A DNA stretch of 64,000 nt, taken from NCBI GenBank assembly GCA_963699165.1, contig OY969413.1, forward strand, positions 852,562 to 916,561, given 5' to 3'. Each line of letters starts with the position of its first letter. Within the stretch, counting starts at the first letter, position 1. Below are positions 19,181-26,176 of this stretch, piece after piece. This DNA is from Candidatus Kaiserbacteria bacterium (GTDB lineage: Bacteria > Patescibacteriota > Minisyncoccia > Phycocordibacterales > Phycocordibacteraceae). The notes beneath the pieces were generated by a model. That model saw nothing but the letters and a program-made list of their open reading frames with translations. It had not been told where the DNA came from and searched no databases. The position numbers and the translations under genes were made by a program.

Positions 19181-19256
19181 TATACTGTCCTATATCGTAT
19201 GAGACACGAGCTTACAAATATAGGACGTGTAGGACAAAACCATGATGTCCTACAAA
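19181..19256. promoter_or_regulatory. cluster of GTCCTA/TAGGAC inverted half-sites (putative operator)
   Basis: GTCCTA at 19187 and 19247 and TAGGAC at 19221 and 19230, in an AT-rich stretch at the 5' end of / upstream of the wHTH gene. Confidence 0.35.
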
Positions 19257-19990
19257 ATAAGACAAAAGCTAAAGACCAGCTTTCAGAGGATTTCGTCCTA
19301 GAAAAAAGCATATTTAATAACATCTTCGAAAAAGACATACGCAGGGTTTATATTTACAAAAAAGCGGAACGGCTCGCGAAAGCCATTCATCTCATCGCGC
19401 CGGCATTTGCGGAATCGCCGTCGCTCAGGGACAAGGTAGATACGATTGCAGTCGGTCTTGTCGACGCGGCAATCCTGCCGTCCGGCTCGGCGCGCATGGC
19501 GCTTTCGCGCGAACTTCTCGCGCTCTCGAGCGTGCTCGGAATCGCGCGGACGGGCGGCCTTCTTTCTTCCATGAATTCGGAGCTTATCTCGCGCGAAGCG
19601 CATGCGCTTTTGCAGGAAGTTGCGGCGTACGAAGAGCCGCGTCTTTTCCTCGATGATGCGCCGACGCTCGCCGGCATTGCGAGGCAGGCATACTCGCAGG
19701 AGGCGGTTCCGCGTCCCGCCTCAACGGAACCGAAGCGCATTCAAAAAATGCCGGCCGTCCGTAAAGGACATGTAAAAGACAGCGCGGAACCGGCAGTCCA
19801 TATAAAGGACAGACGTGAAAGCATTATGTCCGTTATACGCAATAAGGACAAGGCGAGTATAAAAGACATATCGACGCTCATTCGCGGTGTTTCCGAAAAG
19901 ACCGTCCAGCGAGAGCTTTCCGCGCTCATTGTCGCGGGACTGGTTCAGAAACAAGGAGAACGTCGCTGGAGTACCTATTCCCTCGCGTAA
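19199..19990 (+). CDS. winged-helix (DeoR/GntR-like) DNA-binding protein; start uncertain
   Basis: C-terminal wHTH (ASIKDISTLIRGVSEKTVQRELSALIVAGLVQKQGERRWSTYSL). The first ~45 codons are AT-rich and overlap the operator-like repeats, so the true start may be downstream. Confidence 0.5.
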   Translation: MRHELTNIGRVGQNHDVLQNKTKAKDQLSEDFVLEKSIFNNIFEKDIRRVYIYKKAERLAKAIHLIAPAFAESPSLRDKVDTIAVGLVDAAILPSGSARMALSRELLALSSVLGIARTGGLLSSMNSELISREAHALLQEVAAYEEPRLFLDDAPTLAGIARQAYSQEAVPRPASTEPKRIQKMPAVRKGHVKDSAEPAVHIKDRRESIMSVIRNKDKASIKDISTLIRGVSEKTVQRELSALIVAGLVQKQGERRWSTYSLA

Positions 19991-20025
19991 TCGGCAATGG
20001 GAAGGTCTGACCTTCCCATTGCCGA
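19991..20025 (+). terminator. perfect 16-bp stem hairpin after wHTH gene
   Basis: cggcaatgggaaggtc tga ccttcccattgccg immediately after the stop; no strong T-run. Confidence 0.45.
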
Positions 20026-20505
20026 TTGGTCCCTCTCAGGACTCCCCAAAACCTCTTGTCCCTTATCGTCCATGAAGGTTAGGCCTTTACAGCCCGAAAA
20101 GCCCTCATACTTCGTTCATGGAACGTTTTGACTTCCATCCCGTATTTGCTATCATGGCGTTTGTGGTAGCGACTCGGAGCACATACGGGCAAGCGCAGAT
20201 ATAAGGCCGGAAACGGTCTATTTTGCGTGCTCGATTCCGATTTGTTATCCACAACGCCGGTGTAGTGATTGCTTGCCTTCACTATATACTTAGCGTTAGT
20301 CCTTGCGGGAACTCTGCAGTTCCCGGTAGGGCGTACTTTGATAATTGAATAGTCCGCAAAAAACGGACGTCAACCCTTGCCAACTAACCCATGGCGTATT
20401 GGTCGAAACTGTACGCTGTGGGGTAGTGTGAAAGTGAAAATGTGCTCGCACGAAAGTGCGCTTAAATTAATTATTATGTGCGTCTTAAAATTCTTATCAA
20501 TCAAT

Positions 20506-23500
20506 ATGAAATCGGTAACTACGAAAGCGATCGCGAAGGTCGCGGCAGTGGCAACCGGACTCGCGATGGCAACCTCGATGCTCTCGCTTGCGCCTATCGC
20601 GCACGCGGCCGCATTGACCCCGTCACAGGTCCAGTCAATCCTCTCGCTCCTCACTTCGTTCGGTGCTGACAGCGGCACCATCGCAAATGTCCAGGCATCG
20701 CTTACGGGCGGTACGCCTTCGACGACAACGACGACTACGACTACCACGAGCAGTTCGTCCTACACCTTCACGCGCGACCTCACGGTCGGCTCGACGGGTG
20801 CAGATGTCCAGGCGCTTCAGACGGCCCTCATTGCTGACGGCTACTTGAATATTGCTACCCCGACGACGTACTTCGGTGCTTTGACGAAGGCGGCACTTGC
20901 AAAGTGGCAGGCGGCAAACAACGTCGCTCCGGCGGCCGGATACTTCGGTCCTAAGACCCGCGCTGTCTTCACGACAGGCGGCTCGACCGGCACGACGACA
21001 ACGACGACCGGCACCGGCACGACGACAACGGCAGTGGGCTCAGGCCTTAAGGTCATGCTCTCGCCGACTTCGCCGAACGGCACGGTTCTCGTTCAGGGCC
21101 AGGGCATCGGCGATCTTGGGGACTTCGTCTTCACGAACCCGAGCAATGCTCCTATCAACGTCACCGGCCTTAGCTTCAATCGCACGGGTGTCAGCAATGA
21201 TGCAACCTTGGCCAACGTGTACCTCTACAATGCAGGCACGCGCATCACGGACTCGGCAGGCGTCTCCGCTTCTGCGTTCAGCTTTACAAATCCGACGGCG
21301 CTCTTCACGGTTCCGGCAAACAGCTCCTACACGGTGTCTGTTCGTTCCGATATCGCGGGCAGCTCCTCAGGACAGCAGCTCGGTGTCCAGCTTGTCTCGG
21401 TCAACAGCAACGGTACGCTTGACGGTTCCGTCAGCTTCCCGATTAGCTCCGGCTACCAGACAATCTCGAATGCAATACTTGCAGGCGTGAGCTTCCAGGC
21501 AAACGTGACGCCGAGTAACGGCACGAACATCAGCCCGCAGACCGGATATCCGGTTTGGCAGGACACCGTTTCGGTGACCAATAATCCGGTCAAGTTCTCT
21601 TCGCTTCGCCTCACGAACCTCGGTTCGATTGACACGCAGTATGTGCAGAGCTTGGCGCTCTATGTTGACGGTACGCAGGTAGGTTCGACGATTCCTTCGG
21701 GCGCAAGCCAGTCGGCAATCACCTTCGACCTCTCGGCAAACCCGGTTCTTCTCTCGACTTCGAGCCACATCATCAAGGTACTCGCAAACATTACGGGCGG
21801 CGCGTCCCGCACCTTGAGCTTCTCGGTGCAGCGCTCCTCCGACGCAATGTTTATCGACAGCCAGCTTGGCCAGCCGGTAACTCCGGGTTCCCTTGGCAAC
21901 GTTGCATGGTCCGGTGCGGTTACAGCCGGCCCGGTCACCATCAATTCGGTGTCCGTAGGTTCGGGCGTCTCGGTCTCTCTTGACCCGAGCTCTCCGAGTC
22001 AGTCGGTCGCTTACAGCGCTTCGAACGTGAAGTGGGCAACCTTCGACTTCCTTGCCTCGGGTGAAAACGTAAAGGTCTCCGACCTCTACGTCTACGCCAC
22101 GACAACGGGCGCAGGTGGTCTTGCAAACGGCAAGATTCTTGTGAACGGCGTTCAGGTTGGTTCAACGAAGTCGATTGGAACGTATAGTTCGCCGACGGAT
22201 TTCTCCCTCGGTTCCTCTCTTATCCTTCCGGCCGGACAGACGACGCTTGTCAGCATCTATGGCGATGCCAAGGATACGAGCAACAACAATCTTCCGAACG
22301 GCACGTCGGTTACGGTTACTCTTAATGCCGGGTCGTCAAACGGCCAGGGCCAGAGCTCCCTCAACGCGACGAATGTTCCGGGTGCACCGATTAGCAGCAA
22401 CGGTGTCGTTGTCTCGAACTCACAGCTCACAGCAACTGCGTACTCGGGCTACGGCAATCAGACCGTTGTTCCTGGAAGCAACAATGCCAAGCTCGGGGCG
22501 TTTACGCTCTCGACCGGCTCGACTGAAGGCGTGACGGTGAACACAATCACCCTCTCGCTTTTGGCAGGTGCGGCAGCAGAACTTACGAACCTTACGCTCA
22601 AGGATGACGCGACTGGCAACGTGCTTGGCACGGTCCAGACCACGCCTTCGACCAGCAACTCGTTCTCCGTTAACTACGATATCCCCGTCTCTTCGACAAA
22701 GGTTGTCGATGTCTACGGAAACGTTCTCTCGAATGCAAGCGTAAGCCCGATTCAGTTGACTGTTACCACCGCCACTTCGGGCAACGGTGATGTCACCGGT
22801 TCCCCCGTGAGCGCTTCACAGTCGACTCTTCAGAACATCACTGTCGGCACAGGTACGCTGACGGTAACTCGCGGTGCGGGTGACCCGACCAGCAACAACG
22901 TCCTCGCGGGCGCAAGCCAGGTCCAGGTCGGCGAATTCAACTTCGCATCCCAGAACACCTCGTACACGGTCCAGAATCTCGCGATTCTCGTTCCGAACGG
23001 TGTAGCGTCTTCGGTTACGAACGTCACGGTATCCTACAAGGATGTCAACGGCGCGACCCAGACGGCTACGCAGGCACTTGCTATCAACTCGGCAAACCAG
23101 TTCGCAACGGCGACCTTCACCGGTCTCACCGATTACGTCCCGGCAAACGACTCGTCTAACATCGATGTCTATGTCGGTACGCCGACGGTAGCATCGGGTG
23201 CAACTTCGGGCGCGAAGATTAACGTCTCGCTCGATGAAGGCAACACCAGCACCGCAGTTGACAACACGTTCCGTGCAATCAACAGCGCAGGCGCTGCTAT
23301 CACGACCCCGACCGGCGGTTCAGGTCTGACGCTCGCTTCGAACGGTACCTTCGTCGTTCGCAAGTCGATTCCGACCTTCGCCAACGTCGCTACGGGCAAC
23401 TCGGTTCCTTCCACCGGTTCTCCGCTCTACAAGTTCACCATTTCGGCTGACCCTGCAGGCGCTATCGAATGGACGCACCTCAGGTTCAACGTATCGACGA

Positions 23501-23916
23501 CGTCTACGACGGTTACCAACGCGTATCTGACGGATGACAGCTCGGGCGCAAGCTTGCTCGACACGGGAACGTATGCTTCGACGACGGCGACAACCATCAC
23601 GGTTGACCTTCCGACGAACAACAATACGCTCGCGAAGTACGCGCAGGTCGCAGCCGGTGCAACCAAGACCTATGACCTCTACGGCACGGTCTCCGGTTGG
23701 CCGACGGGTGCATCCCTCACAATCTCGCTTGCTGCCGACACCGGTACTGCTCAAAACAACACAGCTACCGGAACCGTAGCCGCAAGCCCGACAGTAGGGT
23801 TCGTGTGGTCTGACCGCTCTTCGACAAATCCGTCTCACTCGATTTCTTCGAGCGACTGGACGAACGGTTACCTCCTCAAGAACTTCACGTCTAACGCAAC
23901 GACCTACTCACACTAG
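20506..23916 (+). CDS. giant secreted S/T-rich surface protein with peptidoglycan-binding domain
   Basis: Signal peptide (MKSVTTKAIAKVAAVATGLAMATSMLSLAPIAHAA), poly-Thr linkers (TTTTTTTTTSSSS; GTTTTTTGTGTTTT), PG_binding_1-like domain (DLTVGSTGADVQALQTALIADGYL…YFGALTKAALAKWQAANNV), then about 900 aa of beta-rich repeats. Start taken as the ATG at 20506. Confidence 0.65.
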   Translation: MKSVTTKAIAKVAAVATGLAMATSMLSLAPIAHAAALTPSQVQSILSLLTSFGADSGTIANVQASLTGGTPSTTTTTTTTTSSSSYTFTRDLTVGSTGADVQALQTALIADGYLNIATPTTYFGALTKAALAKWQAANNVAPAAGYFGPKTRAVFTTGGSTGTTTTTTGTGTTTTAVGSGLKVMLSPTSPNGTVLVQGQGIGDLGDFVFTNPSNAPINVTGLSFNRTGVSNDATLANVYLYNAGTRITDSAGVSASAFSFTNPTALFTVPANSSYTVSVRSDIAGSSSGQQLGVQLVSVNSNGTLDGSVSFPISSGYQTISNAILAGVSFQANVTPSNGTNISPQTGYPVWQDTVSVTNNPVKFSSLRLTNLGSIDTQYVQSLALYVDGTQVGSTIPSGASQSAITFDLSANPVLLSTSSHIIKVLANITGGASRTLSFSVQRSSDAMFIDSQLGQPVTPGSLGNVAWSGAVTAGPVTINSVSVGSGVSVSLDPSSPSQSVAYSASNVKWATFDFLASGENVKVSDLYVYATTTGAGGLANGKILVNGVQVGSTKSIGTYSSPTDFSLGSSLILPAGQTTLVSIYGDAKDTSNNNLPNGTSVTVTLNAGSSNGQGQSSLNATNVPGAPISSNGVVVSNSQLTATAYSGYGNQTVVPGSNNAKLGAFTLSTGSTEGVTVNTITLSLLAGAAAELTNLTLKDDATGNVLGTVQTTPSTSNSFSVNYDIPVSSTKVVDVYGNVLSNASVSPIQLTVTTATSGNGDVTGSPVSASQSTLQNITVGTGTLTVTRGAGDPTSNNVLAGASQVQVGEFNFASQNTSYTVQNLAILVPNGVASSVTNVTVSYKDVNGATQTATQALAINSANQFATATFTGLTDYVPANDSSNIDVYVGTPTVASGATSGAKINVSLDEGNTSTAVDNTFRAINSAGAAITTPTGGSGLTLASNGTFVVRKSIPTFANVATGNSVPSTGSPLYKFTISADPAGAIEWTHLRFNVSTTSTTVTNAYLTDDSSGASLLDTGTYASTTATTITVDLPTNNNTLAKYAQVAAGATKTYDLYGTVSGWPTGASLTISLAADTGTAQNNTATGTVAASPTVGFVWSDRSSTNPSHSISSSDWTNGYLLKNFTSNATTYSH

Positions 23917-24027
23917 TTCTAGCGCTAGCTACGGTTCTTGAATCTGTGGAAGTTTAACTTTCACAAGGTCCGGCTAGGAAATTGGCCTAGCAGCAAAAAC
24001 CACCTCGAAAGAGGTGGTTTTTGCTTT

Positions 24028-24063
24028 TGTGGTATGCTTTTTGATATGGATATAACAAGAATC
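24028..24063 (+). repeat. 37-bp direct repeat, copy 1 (tgtggtatgctttttgatatggatataacaagaatc)
   Basis: Near-identical to 25343-25379. The two copies bracket the REP array plus RAYT. The copy contains a putative -10 (TGtGGTATgcT) and the first codons (ATGGATAAAACAAG) of the downstream TPR gene. Confidence 0.6.
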
Positions 24064-24448
24064 TGTGGAAGTTTAACTTTCACAAGGTCCGGCTAGGAAA
24101 TTGGCCTAGCGTGAGCGGCCGAAAGGTCTGTCTCAAAGAAAGAACCCCCGTAAGGGGGTTCTTTCTTTTTATCCATGAGCATCTGTGGAAGTTTAACTTT
24201 CACACTGACCCAATCCACCTCCATGAGCATCTGTGGAAGTTTAACTTTCACACTGACTCAATCCACCTCCGGAAGGTCTGACGTTCCGGAACCGGAACCG
24301 GACGCGGCTAAGGGTTGGCCTAGCAGCAAAAACCACTCGCGAGAGGTAGTTTTTTGCGTTTGTATTTCTCTCACATTCCCCAAATGTAAGCATTTGTGGA
24401 AGTTTAACTTTCACACATGCTTGCTTTCCATGTATTTTGTCTGCGGAG

Positions 24449-24489
24449 GTCGTCGCCCTGTGGAAGTTAAACTTCCACAGGGCGACGAC
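24449..24489. promoter_or_regulatory. perfect 41-bp palindrome (20-bp arms) GTCGTCGCCCTGTGGAAGTT a AACTTCCACAGGGCGACGAC
   Basis: Exact reverse-complement symmetry around a single central A, 6 nt upstream of the RAYT ORF. Its core equals the REP consensus made perfect. Confidence 0.7.
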
Positions 24490-24494
24490 TTAAT

Positions 24495-25244
24495 TTGGCT
24501 ACGCTGTGTGGCTTTCGAGTTATATTGATTGCTATGCGAATAGAACCATACGGCATCGGATCGATTCGGCATATCACGCAAAGAGGCGTCCGGGGTTTGG
24601 ATATCATGCGCGACGTTCACGACCGCGACCGCTCGGTTCGCGGGCTCTTCTATCTCAACGACACCTACGCCGATGCAAATTGGCATCGGCAGGTGCTTGC
24701 CGTCGAGCCGTTTTCCCGCCCCCTGCATTGGCCGGAGCGCGATCCGCTCGTGCGCATTCTCGCGTGGACGTTCCTCTCGAATCATTTCCATATCCTCTTG
24801 CAGGAACTACGCGAGGGTGGAACGGCGAAATTCATGCAGCGTTTCTGCGGGAGCATGTCATCTTATTTCAATGTGAAATATCGCGAGAAGGGAGGCCTTT
24901 TCCAAGGTTCGTATCACGCGCGCACTGTTACCGAGGACGAGCATTATCGGTACCTCGCTTTTTATATTCTCGTGAAGAACGTGCTCGAGATGTATCCGGG
25001 CGGCTTGCGTGCGGCGCAAGCCAACTTCGATGATGCGTGGGAGTGGGCGAAGTGGTACCCGTATTCGAGTTTGCGGGATTCGGTCGCCACGGACCCTTCA
25101 CCGATAATCGATGACCCGGACGGTCTCATTAAGGGCATTATCGGCACGGGCGACGCGTACAAACAGGAGGCACGCGAGCTATTCGATTTCCACATGGCAT
25201 CGCGCGGCGAGGAGTTCAAGGCGCTCATGCTCGAGCCATGGTAA
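24495..25244 (+). CDS. REP-associated tyrosine transposase (RAYT) / IS200-like Y1 HUH transposase
   Basis: HUH motif (LSNHFHILLQE), catalytic-Tyr region (GLFQGSYHARTVTEDEHYRYLAFYILVKNV) with layout like E. coli RAYT (…HMHCIW… / …FWEHAIRN…YIYINPVKHG). TTG start at 24495; an alternative ATG lies at 24534. Confidence 0.65.
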   Translation: MATLCGFRVILIAMRIEPYGIGSIRHITQRGVRGLDIMRDVHDRDRSVRGLFYLNDTYADANWHRQVLAVEPFSRPLHWPERDPLVRILAWTFLSNHFHILLQELREGGTAKFMQRFCGSMSSYFNVKYREKGGLFQGSYHARTVTEDEHYRYLAFYILVKNVLEMYPGGLRAAQANFDDAWEWAKWYPYSSLRDSVATDPSPIIDDPDGLIKGIIGTGDAYKQEARELFDFHMASRGEEFKALMLEPW

Positions 25245-25342
25245 ATGCGCGGCGCATCCTGTGAAAGTCAGACCTTCACGGAAAATGTTCACCGGCGATG
25301 GGCGGGGTCGTTGCACGGCCGTCAAAGGCAGATTCCGCGATT

Positions 25343-25379
25343 GTGGTATGCTTTTTGAATATGGATAAAACAAGGAATC
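25343..25379 (+). repeat. 37-bp direct repeat, copy 2 (tgtggtatgctttttgaatatggataaaacaaggaatc)
   Basis: See copy 1. Includes the ATG (25361) of the TPR gene. Confidence 0.6.
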
Positions 25380-26176
25380 AGATGCTTTTACTCGCGGTCG
25401 TTGTCGTGGGAGCTGCGGCGCTCGCCGTATTTGCCGAGAATCAAGTTTCAAAGGCGCCTGCGCAGACGGCTTCCTCTACCATTACCGTTTCCACAAGTAC
25501 GCCCGGCGCAACTGTCGCTGTTCCGACGGTGCCCGCGGCAACTCCCGCGCAAGGCGCTGTCGCGACCGGTCCGTTTCCGATTAACCCCGCGGACCGCATC
25601 GCTTCGTGGACTTTTAAAGGCGCATATAGCGGCAACGCGACGCTTACGAGCCAGGCAAATGCCGACATAACTCATCTCACCGGCCTGCTCGGAAAAGGGC
25701 AGTACGACGATTACGACCTCTATGACGGAATCGCAAACGATTACACGTCGCTCGGCGACGGACAGACGGCATACGATAATTACAATCGCGCGATTGCGAT
25801 TCATCCGAGCAAAGGTCTTGCATACGCGAATCTCGGGCATTTGTTTGACGGGCTCGGCGCAGAGTTCACGGCTGCCGATGCGTACGCGAAAGCGACAGTC
25901 GTTGAACCGACGCAAATGGAATATTACATCCAGCGCCTCGACTTTCTCACGGGCAAGCTTCCAAATGACAACTCGGCAATCCTCGCGGCATTTTCGGATG
26001 CGAGCAAACAGTTCGGCGATGCGGCGCCCATCCTTTCGATAGAGGCCGAGTGGCTTGCCGGACAAAAGCGATACGCCGATGCGATTGCCGCGTGGCAAAA
26101 AGTCGAATCACTTTCGCCGGGTGCGGACAATTCTTCGATTGATGCGCAGATAGCCCGACTTAAAGCAAAAGAATGA
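25361..26176 (+). CDS. secreted TPR-repeat protein
   Basis: N-terminal hydrophobic signal (MDKTRNQMLLLAVVVVGAAALAVFA), T/A/P-rich linker, TPR-like helical repeats (YDNYNRAIAIHPSKGLAYANLGHLF…). Start at 25361 supported by duplication of this 5' end in the direct repeat. Confidence 0.5.
   Translation: MDKTRNQMLLLAVVVVGAAALAVFAENQVSKAPAQTASSTITVSTSTPGATVAVPTVPAATPAQGAVATGPFPINPADRIASWTFKGAYSGNATLTSQANADITHLTGLLGKGQYDDYDLYDGIANDYTSLGDGQTAYDNYNRAIAIHPSKGLAYANLGHLFDGLGAEFTAADAYAKATVVEPTQMEYYIQRLDFLTGKLPNDNSAILAAFSDASKQFGDAAPILSIEAEWLAGQKRYADAIAAWQKVESLSPGADNSSIDAQIARLKAKE

Follow-up and report, generated by a model that had tools for sequence, protein, structure and literature searches.

The window analysed here, a stretch of 64,000 nucleotides considered at its full length, holds a single copy of a gene encoding a Y1 HUH enzyme, flanked by seven palindromes upstream (five imperfect, one perfect and one degenerate of a second sequence type) and by one downstream. 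Upstream of this array lies a gene of the PG_binding_1 family and downstream of the Y1 gene a TPR gene. The features of the region, in window coordinates, are the following:

19991-20025: perfect 35-bp palindrome of the second type, core TGGGAAGGTC-T-GACCTTCCCA (19998-20018)
23945-23965: hairpin repeat copy 1, TGTGGAAGTT-T-AACTTTCACA, 9 of 10 pairs; first element past the stop of the upstream gene
23972-24025, + strand: GGCTAGGAAATTGGCCTAGC hairpin and intrinsic terminator, conserved 3' module of the upstream PG_binding_1 gene
24012-24059, + strand: repeat of the start of the downstream TPR gene (its promoter-like region and first codons; cf. 25326-25374)
24064-24084: hairpin repeat copy 2, within a duplicated 52-nt module
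24135-24168, + strand: second terminator-like hairpin, AAAGAAAGAACCCCC-GTAA-GGGGGTTCTTTCTTT, then a T-run
24184-24204: hairpin repeat copy 3, in unit 1 of a 48-bp tandem duplication (24172-24219)
24232-24252: hairpin repeat copy 4, in unit 2 of the same duplication (24220-24267)
24268-24290: degenerate second-type palindrome, TCCGGAAGGTC-T-GACGTTCCGGA
24395-24415: hairpin repeat copy 5, whose 3' end TTCACA is the -35 of a promoter-like site
24449-24489: perfect 41-bp palindrome, arms of 20 nt and one centre base
24534-25244, + strand: Y1 HUH nuclease gene, 236 amino acids plus stop (Pfam Y1_Tnp, conserved residues, structural model)
25260-25280: downstream second-type palindrome, TGTGAAAGTC-A-GACCTTCACG, 8 of 10 pairs

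The 21-mer TGTGGAAGTTTAACTTTCACA occurs exactly five times, always on the + strand (at 23945, 24064, 24184, 24232 and 24395), against a chance expectation of 0.00 matches in shuffles, and these imperfect copies and the perfect 41-bp palindrome stand where a preliminary description of this DNA had placed them; allowing up to three mismatches reveals no further match within the 64-kb window. Inside the 41-bp palindrome, a perfect version of the 21-mer (24459-24479; TGTGGAAGTT-A-AACTTCCACA) is framed by 10-nt arms, GTCGTCGCCC and GGGCGACGAC, found at this locus alone, and the centre lies 65 nt 5' of the Y1 start codon. Folded as single-stranded DNA, the 41-mer is predicted to reach -25.6 kcal/mol (z = -11.8), a single imperfect copy merely -4.6 kcal/mol (z = -2.8). 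The second sequence type, GAAGGTC-W-GACCTTC, includes the palindrome at 24268-24290 and the one 3' of the gene; the latter, described earlier as a degenerate copy, is indeed present (25253-25282 in the repeat search, its centre 29 nt past the last sense codon and 26 nt past the stop) but belongs to this second type. Directly 3' of the stop of the ORF at 19199-19990 stands the perfect 35-bp palindrome, the only copy in the 62 kb of the window outside the locus, and in this genome the hairpin family is almost confined to the locus.

Duplication is evident throughout the array. Two identical 52-nt modules (23940-23991 and 24059-24110) each consist of a palindrome plus GGCTAGGAAATTGGCCTAGC, the two units of the 48-bp tandem duplication, as described before, are 98% identical, and the stretch at 24012-24059 reveals that a segment has been duplicated locally inside the array. 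The five imperfect copies and the perfect one probably arose through local duplication of the upstream gene's 3' module together with the 48-bp tandem repeat. In four genomes, the first palindrome, a GGCTAGG...CCTAGC hairpin and a G/C-stem terminator form the conserved 3' end of the PG_binding_1 gene (1100 amino acids), and this 3' module is duplicated in the present one, with a second GGCTAGGAAATTGGCCTAGC hairpin (24091-24110) followed by the different terminator-like hairpin at 24135-24168, and a degenerate copy of the hairpin-terminator module at 24306-24358. Because the module is conserved behind the upstream gene in four genomes it is not RAYT-specific, and the CTAG hairpins and G/C-stem terminators, once assigned to a RAYT module, belong to the 3' end of the PG_binding_1 gene. 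A terminator scan retrieves two of the three G/C-stem, T-run hairpins noted earlier on the + strand (23992-24025 and 24338-24358); it puts the core of the third (24145-24157) on the - strand, though its stem is symmetric (24135-24168) and its T-run is on the + strand. The four terminator-like sites of the region represent no enrichment over shuffles (2.2 +/- 1.8), and an Rfam search of 19800-25500 at E <=1 gave sub-threshold matches alone, centred on terminators.

The promoter-like site that takes its -35 from copy 5 is the only one upstream of the Y1 gene. A CRP/FNR-type operator (TGTGA-N6-TCACA) is ruled out, as the stems co-vary (see below) and TGTG and CACA are spaced 13 nt apart, with 11 nt from TGTGG to TCACA in the 21-mer. 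The small ORFs that run across the array (e.g. 24175-24528) are not genes; they are by-products of the palindrome's open readings, five of the six possible (three frames, with A or T at the centre) being open. Such a hairpin array creates spurious ORFs in annotation and breaks short-read assemblies.

The Y1 protein

Translation starts at the ATG at 24534 (MRIEPYG), which is conserved in homologues, rather than at the TTG at 24495 from which the ORF had been read before. The 236-residue length is very uniform across the family, whose named sources (Minisyncoccia, Paceibacteria, Kaiserbacteria) place this Y1 subfamily in Patescibacteria. Two of the checks proposed in the preliminary description, a match to the Y1 profile and the presence of the HUH and tyrosine residues on alignment, came out in its favour: residues 73-145 match Pfam PF01797 (Y1_Tnp) in a narrow pass, with 25.9 bits against a cut-off of 23, and N42, H84, H86, Y144 and N149 are invariant in 62 relatives down to 24% identity, with the HUH motif formed by H84-F-H86 and Y144, in a predicted helix (135-151), as candidate catalytic tyrosine. 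AlphaFold2 run on 24 close homologues gave an unusable model (pLDDT 52), a problem overcome with the alignment of 62 sequences (pLDDT 91.6). The best solved match to this model in Foldseek is 4ER8_A (E = 4.9e-5, target TM-score 0.62, probability 1.00), the structure of the E. coli REP-associated tyrosine transposase (RAYT) with a REP hairpin bound, followed by IS608 and ISDra2 TnpA chains (2A6M, 2XM3 and 2VJV, E <1e-3, probability 1.00). A search of PDB sequences with the single protein found no match, and profile searches yielded ISDra2 alone with a shallow profile (E = 1.2) and E = 0.017 with a diverse one. The nearest curated family is REP_Tyr_transpos, whose RAYT equivalog model NF047646 is matched at E <=0.001 by 54 of the 62 diverse relatives (best E 3.8e-13); the protein itself scores 32.3 bits, below the cut-off of 80. 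Hence the RAYT identity suggested at the outset stands as regards the Y1 HUH fold and the closest structure, but not as membership in the curated RAYT model.

Flanking pairs, co-varying stems and dispersed copies

A palindrome of this kind lies on each side of the Y1 gene in 16 of 17 distinct homologue loci for which both flanks are available (27-75% identity), the exception being L014 (28% identity), while in L008 the palindromes are imperfect and were recognised as direct repeats. In alignments that include the first residue of the protein, palindrome centres precede the start by 14-65 nt and follow the last aligned codon by 16-72 nt. Across the family the palindrome measures 21 nt (N10-W-N10), has an invariant centre, GTY-W-RAC, and usually ends in TG...CA; its arms vary between genomes yet remain complementary, with 8 of 11 stem pairs changed on both sides and 96.4% of cells paired, a degree of co-variation equalled in none of 500 shuffles. 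The window, L002 and L008 share the gene order PG_binding_1, Y1, TPR, Wzy_C, part of which is also found in L004; the preservation of this order at 65-71% protein identity argues for vertical inheritance, as for RAYTs (PMC5581495). The neighbours differ in L005 and L007, and the RNR-TPR-MurJ site that matches their neighbourhood is empty in this species, so the unit must have moved at some time. One contig carries several types of hairpin sequence alongside the one Y1 gene in view, so that a pairing of one enzyme with one hairpin does not follow.

The flanking type of L005 and L007, the sister 21-mer TGKGAAGGTCWGACCTTCMCA, is present on at least 120 metagenome contigs, against about one or two chance matches per 10^12 bases by our own estimate. 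Among the matches listed, it stands in 118 distinct flanking contexts, and a Y1 homologue accompanies it on 14 of 120 contig stretches, about 88% having no such gene nearby. The window's own 21-mer has no copy outside the locus in the 64 kb, nor in 13 kb of a further assembly of the same species, and its perfect version was met, in a scan of a genome collection, at an unrelated intergenic site in one Saccharibacteria contig. Dispersal, which the preliminary description had proposed to check, is seen for the superfamily in related genomes, but its 23-mer is confined to the locus in the 64 kb and 13 kb, an outcome that goes against the REP reading by the refuting condition set there. Across 118 oriented copies there is no GTAG or CGTC tag or guide at the foot of the hairpin, and flank positions carry at most 0.48 bits, a symmetric T/A preference alone. 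Inverted doublets occur, for instance at 10659-10705 of L131 with centres 26 nt apart, the spacing between centres being 19-32 nt overall. In 11 of the 118 copies perfect complementarity runs at least 4 nt further into unique flanks, for which we estimate a chance of about 0.4% (1/256 for four more random pairs). Palindrome pairs 1.0-1.35 kb apart with identical flanks were seen in L017, L097, L128 and L083; a second associated gene type between such pairs was considered and rejected, as the enclosed ORFs are unrelated and ordinary-looking.

Many of the dispersed copies are intragenic, a point absent from the preliminary description. Open frames of at least 250 amino acids contain 34 of 103 non-redundant copies, 33-50% of sampled copies are in frame within genes, and all ten frames tested are real genes by Pfam. 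Genes with in-frame copies include those for LepA, ArgRS, MetRS, Tgt, MurC and UDG. LepA alleles with and without hairpins differ by 10-15 amino acids; one of them, P0425, carries an in-frame inverted doublet, and the longest contig of its record measures 693,323 bp, as does the JGI contig that encodes the Y1 protein P0093, which would link such a hairpin and a Y1 gene within one genome. At the ArgRS site, a palindrome replaces an 11-residue loop with no change in length, and the orthologous position shows three different perfect palindromes and one non-palindromic state in the same 11 codons, both arms changing together at the cost of amino-acid changes. Such same-length replacement is not predicted by simple cut-and-paste insertion.

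A probable REP/RAYT-type module and the alternatives

On balance, we consider it likely that the locus represents a lineage-specific form of REP/RAYT-type module, whose Y1 nuclease acts on the hairpins that flank it, a reading that draws on the fold, the catalytic residues, the flanking arrangement, the stem co-variation, the dispersal and the in-frame intragenic copies reported above. The original assignment to a REP/BIME-RAYT module is partly supported: it was right in kind, with qualifications, since palindromes on both sides prove to be a conserved trait of the family but lack the GTAG or CGTC tag. By this mechanism, the Y1 protein would bind the hairpin in single-stranded DNA, e.g. at a replication fork, and Tyr144 would cut at the hairpin foot, with H84, H86 and probably N149 holding the metal. 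Rejoining of the cut strand elsewhere would copy or move hairpins, singly or as inverted doublets, preferentially to sites beside or inside existing hairpins. Copies landing in genes would survive only when in frame and free of stops, whereas those flanking the Y1 gene would be the resident source copies and, given that one palindrome stands between the promoter-like site and the start codon, would probably also shape its expression.

The association of hairpins and gene could also arise by mere accumulation of hairpins beside the Y1 gene, and the alternative that survives best, which we nonetheless hold to be unlikely, is that hairpins spread by a process independent of the Y1 protein, such as intra-strand template switching, by which quasi-palindromes are perfected and lengthened, or a biased uptake or repair drive, the protein being a domesticated hairpin-binding factor that serves another role or its gene one whose flanks collect hairpins. 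The variety of palindromic and non-palindromic states at the ArgRS site, the extended complementarity of the 11 copies, the locus-specific outer arms of the 41-bp and 35-bp perfect palindromes in the window, and the several hairpin types with one Y1 gene in view would all suit such a process. Template switching, however, perfects palindromes and cannot put the same 21-mer into over 100 unrelated contexts, co-varying stems are incompatible with an uptake receptor that depends on a specific sequence, and chance accumulation fails to explain palindromes on both sides of Y1 genes across 27-75% identity. The true length polymorphism of LepA, and a nearest structural relative whose structure was solved on just such a substrate, likewise speak against a process of this sort.

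Quite improbable, in our estimation, is an autonomous insertion sequence of the IS200/IS605 type, with the flanking palindromes as left-end and right-end subterminal hairpins and the solo palindromes as relics or miniature derivatives. It would fit the catalytic residues and fold of a Y1 enzyme, hairpins on both flanks no more than tens of bases from the ORF, and the past movement indicated by the neighbourhoods of L005 and L007 and the empty RNR-TPR-MurJ site, yet the window contains a single copy in 64 kb instead of several near-identical units at unrelated sites, and the neighbours are kept at 65-71% protein identity. Moreover, the protein, very uniform in length, has 236 amino acids, compared with about 130-150 in the matched solved TnpA chains, its left and right hairpins share one symmetric sequence rather than forming distinct ends, and RAYT outranks the IS608 and ISDra2 TnpA as structural match. 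Immobile local regulatory DNA or RNA (operators or 5'-UTR/3'-UTR hairpins) for the Y1 gene and the upstream surface-protein gene deserves very little credence: within 77 kb of this species the 21-mer type (TGTGGAAGTTWAACTTYCACA) stands nowhere but at the locus, one copy overlaps a promoter-like -35, the perfect copy is placed between the promoter-like site and the start codon, and the first copy is part of the upstream gene's conserved 3' module, but the same architecture recurs elsewhere with different, co-varying sequences, a sister type stands 4.5 kb away behind an unrelated gene, the exact perfect 21-mer occurs at the unrelated intergenic site in Saccharibacteria, and the superfamily is abundantly dispersed, including inside genes.

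The REP/RAYT-type module favoured here departs in several respects from those already described. In classical REPs the 5' foot of the hairpin bears a conserved tetranucleotide, the tag or guide GTAG or CGTC (PMC3733652, PMC6006769), and the repeats are extragenic and usually present in >100 copies per genome (PMC2817692). RAYT genes are flanked in extragenic space by their own repeated palindromes (PMC5581495, PMC3733652), a core feature being that the flanking 16-mers are very frequent in the genome that carries them (PMC5581495). E. coli TnpA_REP/YafM (4ER8; PMC3479197, PMC2817692, PMC8266576) resembles the present system in its Y1 HUH fold, cognate flanking hairpins, repeats that occur singly and as inverted doublets, and one gene copy seen, with synteny largely conserved. 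It has 165 amino acids, however, as against 236 here, with extra N- and C-terminal helices, and the elements differ in being near-perfect 21-nt palindromes with a one-base centre and no GTAG tag or guide, many of them intragenic and few seen in this genome. The REPIN-RAYT systems of Pseudomonas and enterobacteria (PMC3116915, PMC5581495) have a single-copy Y1 gene passed on vertically, as would seem to apply here too, and share inverted doublets and flanking repeats with further copies at other sites, but the high frequency of flanking repeats is not seen for the window's 21-mer in 77 kb, the doublets here are much tighter (19-32 nt between centres), and several unrelated stem sequences share one contig. 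Rickettsia palindromic elements and intragenic REPs (PMC3733652) provide a parallel for in-frame insertions, as singles or dimers adding short peptides, in genes that stay functional. Of these, RPE-1 elements are described as longer palindromic insertions and the intragenic REPs carry GTAG or CGTC tags (PMC3733652), whereas here the unit is 21 nt (7 codons), 33-50% of sampled copies are intragenic, the hosts are Patescibacteria, and one site has been rewritten in place with compensating arm changes.

With IS608 and ISDra2 TnpA (2A6M, 2XM3) the Y1 protein shares a fold match and hairpins on both sides and, by analogy, would share HUH and tyrosine chemistry and the recognition of single-stranded DNA hairpins; it differs from IS200/IS605 in showing no sign of multiple gene copies, in its conserved synteny and identical symmetric ends, and in its larger protein and lack of a tnpB gene. 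The uptake sequences (USS/DUS) of Pasteurellaceae and Neisseriaceae are short motifs that accumulate in coding regions where the peptide is tolerated and length is unchanged, and so resemble the same-length change at the ArgRS site, but they are fixed sequences with no co-varying palindromic arms, occur at far higher density, and are not accompanied by a Y1 gene.

Significance for Patescibacteria

Most descriptions of REP/RAYT systems concern Proteobacteria, and a literature search combining REP or RAYT with CPR/Patescibacteria, and also using DNA and peptide strings, found nothing relevant. The source and related genomes are those of Patescibacteria of about 1 Mb, in which repeat families would have seemed unlikely to be tolerated, and least likely within LepA, aminoacyl-tRNA synthetases, Tgt or MurC. 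The way in which REPs move has, to our knowledge, yet to be settled, and a 21-nt, symmetric, tag-free element with an invariant centre and freely varying stems constitutes a very small, well-defined substrate, tractable for testing how a Y1 protein recognizes and relocates hairpins. The ArgRS and LepA sites add a natural series, the same position being found filled, empty, switched or decayed. It is tentatively conceivable, though we would not call it probable, that Patescibacteria carry undescribed hairpin elements of 21 nt, or 7 codons, associated with a conserved 236-residue Y1 nuclease, which routinely colonise essential genes in frame and are then rewritten in place, both arms altering in concert so that the palindrome stays perfect while the amino acids change. 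If this is true, rewriting in place would call for a conversion or writing step that is templated by the hairpin and goes further than ordinary cut-and-paste, and the hairpins would steadily generate loop variants in core proteins encoded by ultra-small genomes.

The Y1 protein and its relatives

The Y1 gene of the window is best read from an ATG at 24534 to a stop at 25244 (+ strand), with a start common to its homologues, and encodes a protein of 236 aa. A preliminary description, made from sequence alone, took 23943-25282 for a module of a REP-associated tyrosine transposase (RAYT) and hairpin repeats (REPs/BIME), and the Pfam check that it proposed was narrowly passed (Y1_Tnp, 25.9 bits, the gathering score being 23). 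The sole NCBIfam match, the REP-associated tyrosine transposase model, reached 32 of the 80 bits needed, and the window protein does not belong to the curated RAYT family. Searched by word index, 5.8 billion proteins yielded more than 250 relatives, labelled in their sources as Minisyncoccia, Paceibacterota, Kaiserbacteria or Parcubacteria; the best 120 of these are 61-100% identical and nearly all exactly 236 aa long, the top one being the window's own protein, the exact sequence of which was located on a 993,452-bp contig. Among 1.84 billion cluster representatives, profile searching brought up 9,572 relatives at E ≤0.001, 63 of them at E ≤1e-30.

An alignment of 62 relatives, reaching down to 24% identity, has N42, H84, H86, Y144 and N149 as its sole invariant residues, a set that takes in the two HUH histidines, the tyrosine and, five positions on, an Asn, and the residues on which the preliminary description had staked its reading (H84, H86, Y144) are thus present throughout. 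AlphaFold modeling from this alignment gave a pLDDT of 91.6, as against 52 from 24 close sequences, and of the solved structures 4ER8_A, in which the E. coli REP-associated tyrosine transposase sits on a REP hairpin, matches best (E = 4.9e-5), followed by the IS608, ISDra2 and IS200 transposases. Domain scores, invariant residues and structure match together identify the protein as a Y1 HUH enzyme, with a RAYT as its closest characterised relative.

Palindromes around the gene

The surroundings of homologues were fetched from other genomes and metagenome contigs (loci denoted L001, L002 and so on) and their flanks searched for palindromes. Among the 17 distinct loci with flanks on both sides, 16 are bordered left and right by the same type of palindrome, some with proteins only 27-50% identical; the exception is L014 (28% identity), and in L008 the copies are imperfect, showing as direct repeats. 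Where proteins align from the first residue, the palindromes are centred 14-65 nt upstream of the start and 16-72 nt past the last aligned codon. The palindrome sequence varies between genomes, always as N10-W-N10 with the common centre GTY-W-RAC.

Examples of palindromes flanking Y1 genes
Window: TGTGGAAGTT-W-AACTTCCACA
L002: TCTGGAAAGTC-W-GACTTTCCAGA
L004: TGAGTAAGGTT-W-AACCTTACTCA
L005: TGTGAAGGTC-W-GACCTTCACA
L007: TTGGGAAGGTC-W-GACCTTCCCAA

Over 28 flanking copies, stem cells are paired in 96.4%, a value that is partly circular because copies were located by palindromy, and two-sided changes occur in 8 of 11 pairs, a diversity of pair types that is not circular. None of 500 shuffles reached these two figures, and slid controls were 32-48% paired. 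The fold, the invariant catalytic residues and this conserved association suggest that the Y1 protein would bind and cleave the hairpin.

The window, L002 and L008 share the synteny of the Y1 gene at 65-71% identity. In the Kaiserbacteria locus L005 (3202-5618) the gene lies between RNR and TPR-MurJ genes, an interval that in L130 (5309-5912), from the window's species, is about 600 bp long and holds neither Y1 gene nor hairpin, the gene being elsewhere; the unit has relocated at least once. An autonomous IS200-like element is a less probable rival reading, which this relocation favours and the kept synteny speaks against. Family palindromes also occur within the coding sequence of distant homologues, 27-31% identical to the window protein (L103, ~10559; L108, ~343; gene on +). 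In L032 (homologue 35% identical, gene on +), palindromes of another family, AAATGTGGACTTA-C-GAAGTCCACATTT, lie both around and within the Y1 gene, at 648, 817 and 1367, which suggests other enzyme/hairpin pairings in the same environments.

Hairpin array at the window locus (Y1 gene on +)
23945, 24064, 24184, 24232, 24395: exact copies of the imperfect palindrome TGTGGAAGTTTAACTTTCACA
23940-23991 and 24059-24110: mutually identical 52-nt modules (repeat finder)
24012-24059: duplicate of ~48 nt of 25326-25374, the TGGTATGCT promoter-like box and first codons (ATGGATAnAACAAG) of the downstream TPR gene
24172-24219 and 24220-24267: 48-bp tandem duplication, 98% identical (repeat finder)
24268-24290: degenerate copy of a second type, GAAGGTC-W-GACCTTC
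24449-24489: perfect 41-bp palindrome, containing a perfect 21-mer at 24459-24479
25253-25282: degenerate copy 3' of the gene, containing the other degenerate second-type palindrome (25260-25280)

The five imperfect copies, 41-bp version, tandem duplication and degenerate 3' copy of the preliminary description were all recovered within 23500-25700. Chance matches to TGTGGAAGTTTAACTTTCACA are expected at 0.00 (100 shuffles), and none at ≤3 mismatches occurs elsewhere in the 64-kb window. Folding of the single strand gives -25.6 kcal/mol (z = -11.8) for the 41-mer; an imperfect copy by itself reaches just -4.6 kcal/mol and makes a marginal hairpin.

The CTAG hairpins and terminators, previously assigned to the RAYT module, are instead the 3' end of the neighboring gene, since the same three elements close the upstream 1100-aa PG_binding_1 gene in four genomes: a genome-specific palindrome, the sequence-conserved CCAGCTAGGAAATTGGCCTAGC hairpin and a AAAAACCACC...GGTGGTTTTT terminator (window 23917-24025; L002 3755-3870; L004 3760-3885; L008 9812-9930). 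PG_binding_1 is a large Thr/Ser-rich surface-protein gene, and its CTAG hairpin is kept in sequence though the proteins are 34-60% identical. The window has some two and a half copies of this 3' module (23943-24025, 24062-24170, degenerate 24306-24358) and, with the repeats interleaved with the TPR-gene copy and the 48-bp tandem repeat, the array reads as the product of local duplications around hairpins; the TPR-start duplicate, upstream of the Y1 gene within the array, speaks for segmental duplication or rearrangement there. Two independent short-read assemblies encoding the identical protein (L133, L134) have contigs ending 65-75 nt upstream of the Y1 start, inside the 41-bp palindrome, making the array an assembly breakpoint.

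Hairpins away from the gene

The sole off-locus copy in the window is a perfect 35-bp palindrome at 19991-20025, TCGGCAA-TGGGAAGGTCTGACCTTCCCA-TTGCCGA, of a type other than the Y1-flanking one and with outer arms unique to its locus, following directly on the stop of ORF 19199-19990 (winged-helix-like C-terminus). Counting did not bear out dispersal of the palindrome first described, which is confined to its locus in the 64-kb window and has no 21-mer copy in 13 kb from another assembly of the species. A genome-collection scan placed the window's own 21-mer at one intergenic site, on a Saccharibacteria-labelled contig, the source genome being evidently outside the collection. That site, in L001, has the perfect version of the 21-mer (TGTGGAAGTTAAACTTCCACA, 4463-4489) once, upstream of a NUDIX-like ORF; the contig, 5.9 kb long, lacks a Y1 gene.

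The L005/L007 type (TGKGAAGGTCWGACCTTCMCA) was found by metagenome scan on at least 120 contigs, for about one or two chance matches per 10^12 bases by our own estimate, with 118 distinct flanking contexts for 137 copies among the matches listed. By tblastn, a Y1 homologue lies on only 14 of 120 listed contig stretches. A palindrome drive independent of the protein is a less probable rival reading, which the two-sided flanking of Y1 genes speaks against. A generic-architecture scan of all fetched loci revealed many stem types, often several per contig (for example TGGACAAGTC..., TAAAGAGGTT..., TGTTTAAGTT..., TGGGAGAGTC..., GTGGGACGTC... and CGCGGAAGTC...; ~0-0.25 per locus when shuffled). Relatives' hairpins occur as singles and tight inverted doublets, often adjacent, with centres 19-32 nt apart, and among the 118 listed copies no asymmetric GTAG or CGTC tag was found beside the hairpin, only a weak symmetric T...A preference. 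Palindrome pairs 1.0-1.35 kb apart each enclose a single unrelated ORF (L097, 337/1561; L128, 1268/2271; L017, 217/1568) and have 29 to at least 45 nt of upstream flank in common, as identical sequence for L097 and L128 and in part for L017; at some gene boundaries a longer repeated unit may include the palindrome.

Many copies lie inside genes. Among the matches listed, stop-free frames of at least 120 aa span 70 of 137 copies and, more strictly, 34 of 103 non-redundant copies lie in frames of 250 aa or more that extend 60 aa or more to either side, translated according to frame as [MLV]GRSDLPK, WEG[QL]TFP, CEG[QL]TFT or GKVRPSQ. All ten frames tested by Pfam are genuine (ArgRS, LepA, UDG, Tgt, MetRS, MurC, TsaD, class-V aminotransferase, ScpA, reverse transcriptase). 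LepA orthologues have a basal loop PPP-x7-EPRG, and alleles with the hairpin, bearing for example GRSDLP..EGQTF doublets or the variants RKSDFR, WKSDFH and WTSDVH, are 10-15 aa longer, a true length polymorphism. The LepA allele P0425 carries an in-frame inverted doublet, read as DNA on the 92-kb sister-sample contig L131 (10659-10705, CGCGGAAGTCtGACTTCCGCA-GCAAC-TGCGGAAGTCaGACTTCCGCG, peptide SRKSDFRSNCGSQTSA). Its longest listed contig is as long as the 693,323-bp JGI contig of the Y1 protein P0093, a shared size that provides a within-genome link between Y1 gene and intragenic doublet; the Y1 gene there is flanked by a hairpin type other than the doublet's. LepA of the window species (P0510) is plain, and the window has no intragenic copy. 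A purely local regulatory role of the hairpins in this genome, the remaining and least probable rival, is favoured by the locus-only window palindrome and opposed by these dispersed copies.

The ArgRS loop and the nature of the system

Across 120 ArgRS orthologues one loop is 11 aa long nearly throughout, typically E-A-G-T-Q-D-A-P-A-E-A, and stays so in palindrome-bearing alleles. At the same 11 codons, following ...KEAGVE, lie three different perfect 21-nt palindromes or non-palindromic sequence.

ArgRS loop sites
L041: TGGGAAGGTC-A-GACCTTCCCA, peptide EMGRSDLPKEA
L030: arms of L041 with T centre, peptide EMGRSDLPKEA
L135: TGGGGAAGTC-G-GACTTCCCCA, peptide EVGKSDFPKEA
L136: TGGGAGAGTC-T-GACTCTCCCA, peptide EMGESDSPKE
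L137: GGG ACG CAA GAC GCA CCC, non-palindromic, peptide EAGTQDAPAQA

In the L041/L030, L135 and L136 sequences perfect palindromy persists while the two arms change in concert, which alters the protein, pairing R, K or E with L, F or S (GRSDLP, GKSDFP, GESDSP versus GTQDAP). Simple insertion does not predict this pattern, which points either to a tolerated site where replacement has recurred or to correction of one arm on the template of the other. Such a process could also account for the 11 of 118 copies among the matches listed, a group that takes in the window's 35-bp and 41-bp palindromes, in which perfect complementarity continues for at least 4 nt into unique flanks (~0.4% by chance, our own estimate); alternatively, these copies may have inserted into the loop of a hairpin already present. 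Two more in-frame inserts recur in the loop, ...DGRRSGPLGQVLP... (orthologues P0124, P0143-P0145, P0151, P0159, P0176) and ...GKTWPSGPERRP... (P0125, P0156, P0186, P0221, P0232), and may represent additional, longer repeat families.

A tetranucleotide guide or tag on the 5' side marks classical REPs (PMC6006769, PMC3733652), which usually number more than 100 in a genome (PMC2817692). The 16-mers on the flanks of RAYT genes are abundant across the genome (PMC5581495), and there are earlier descriptions of intragenic REPs and of Rickettsia palindromic elements (PMC3733652). The window system is alike in its working but departs from REP/RAYT systems on several membership criteria, its points of difference being the size and symmetry of the element, the missing tag, the host phylum and the high in-frame share; our literature search found neither a REP or RAYT link to the Candidate Phyla Radiation nor these sequences. 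The best-supported reading is a REP/RAYT-type system, in which a largely vertically inherited Y1 nuclease is accompanied by resident copies of its hairpin substrate, and the family-wide behavior of these hairpins is of more interest than the window locus alone.
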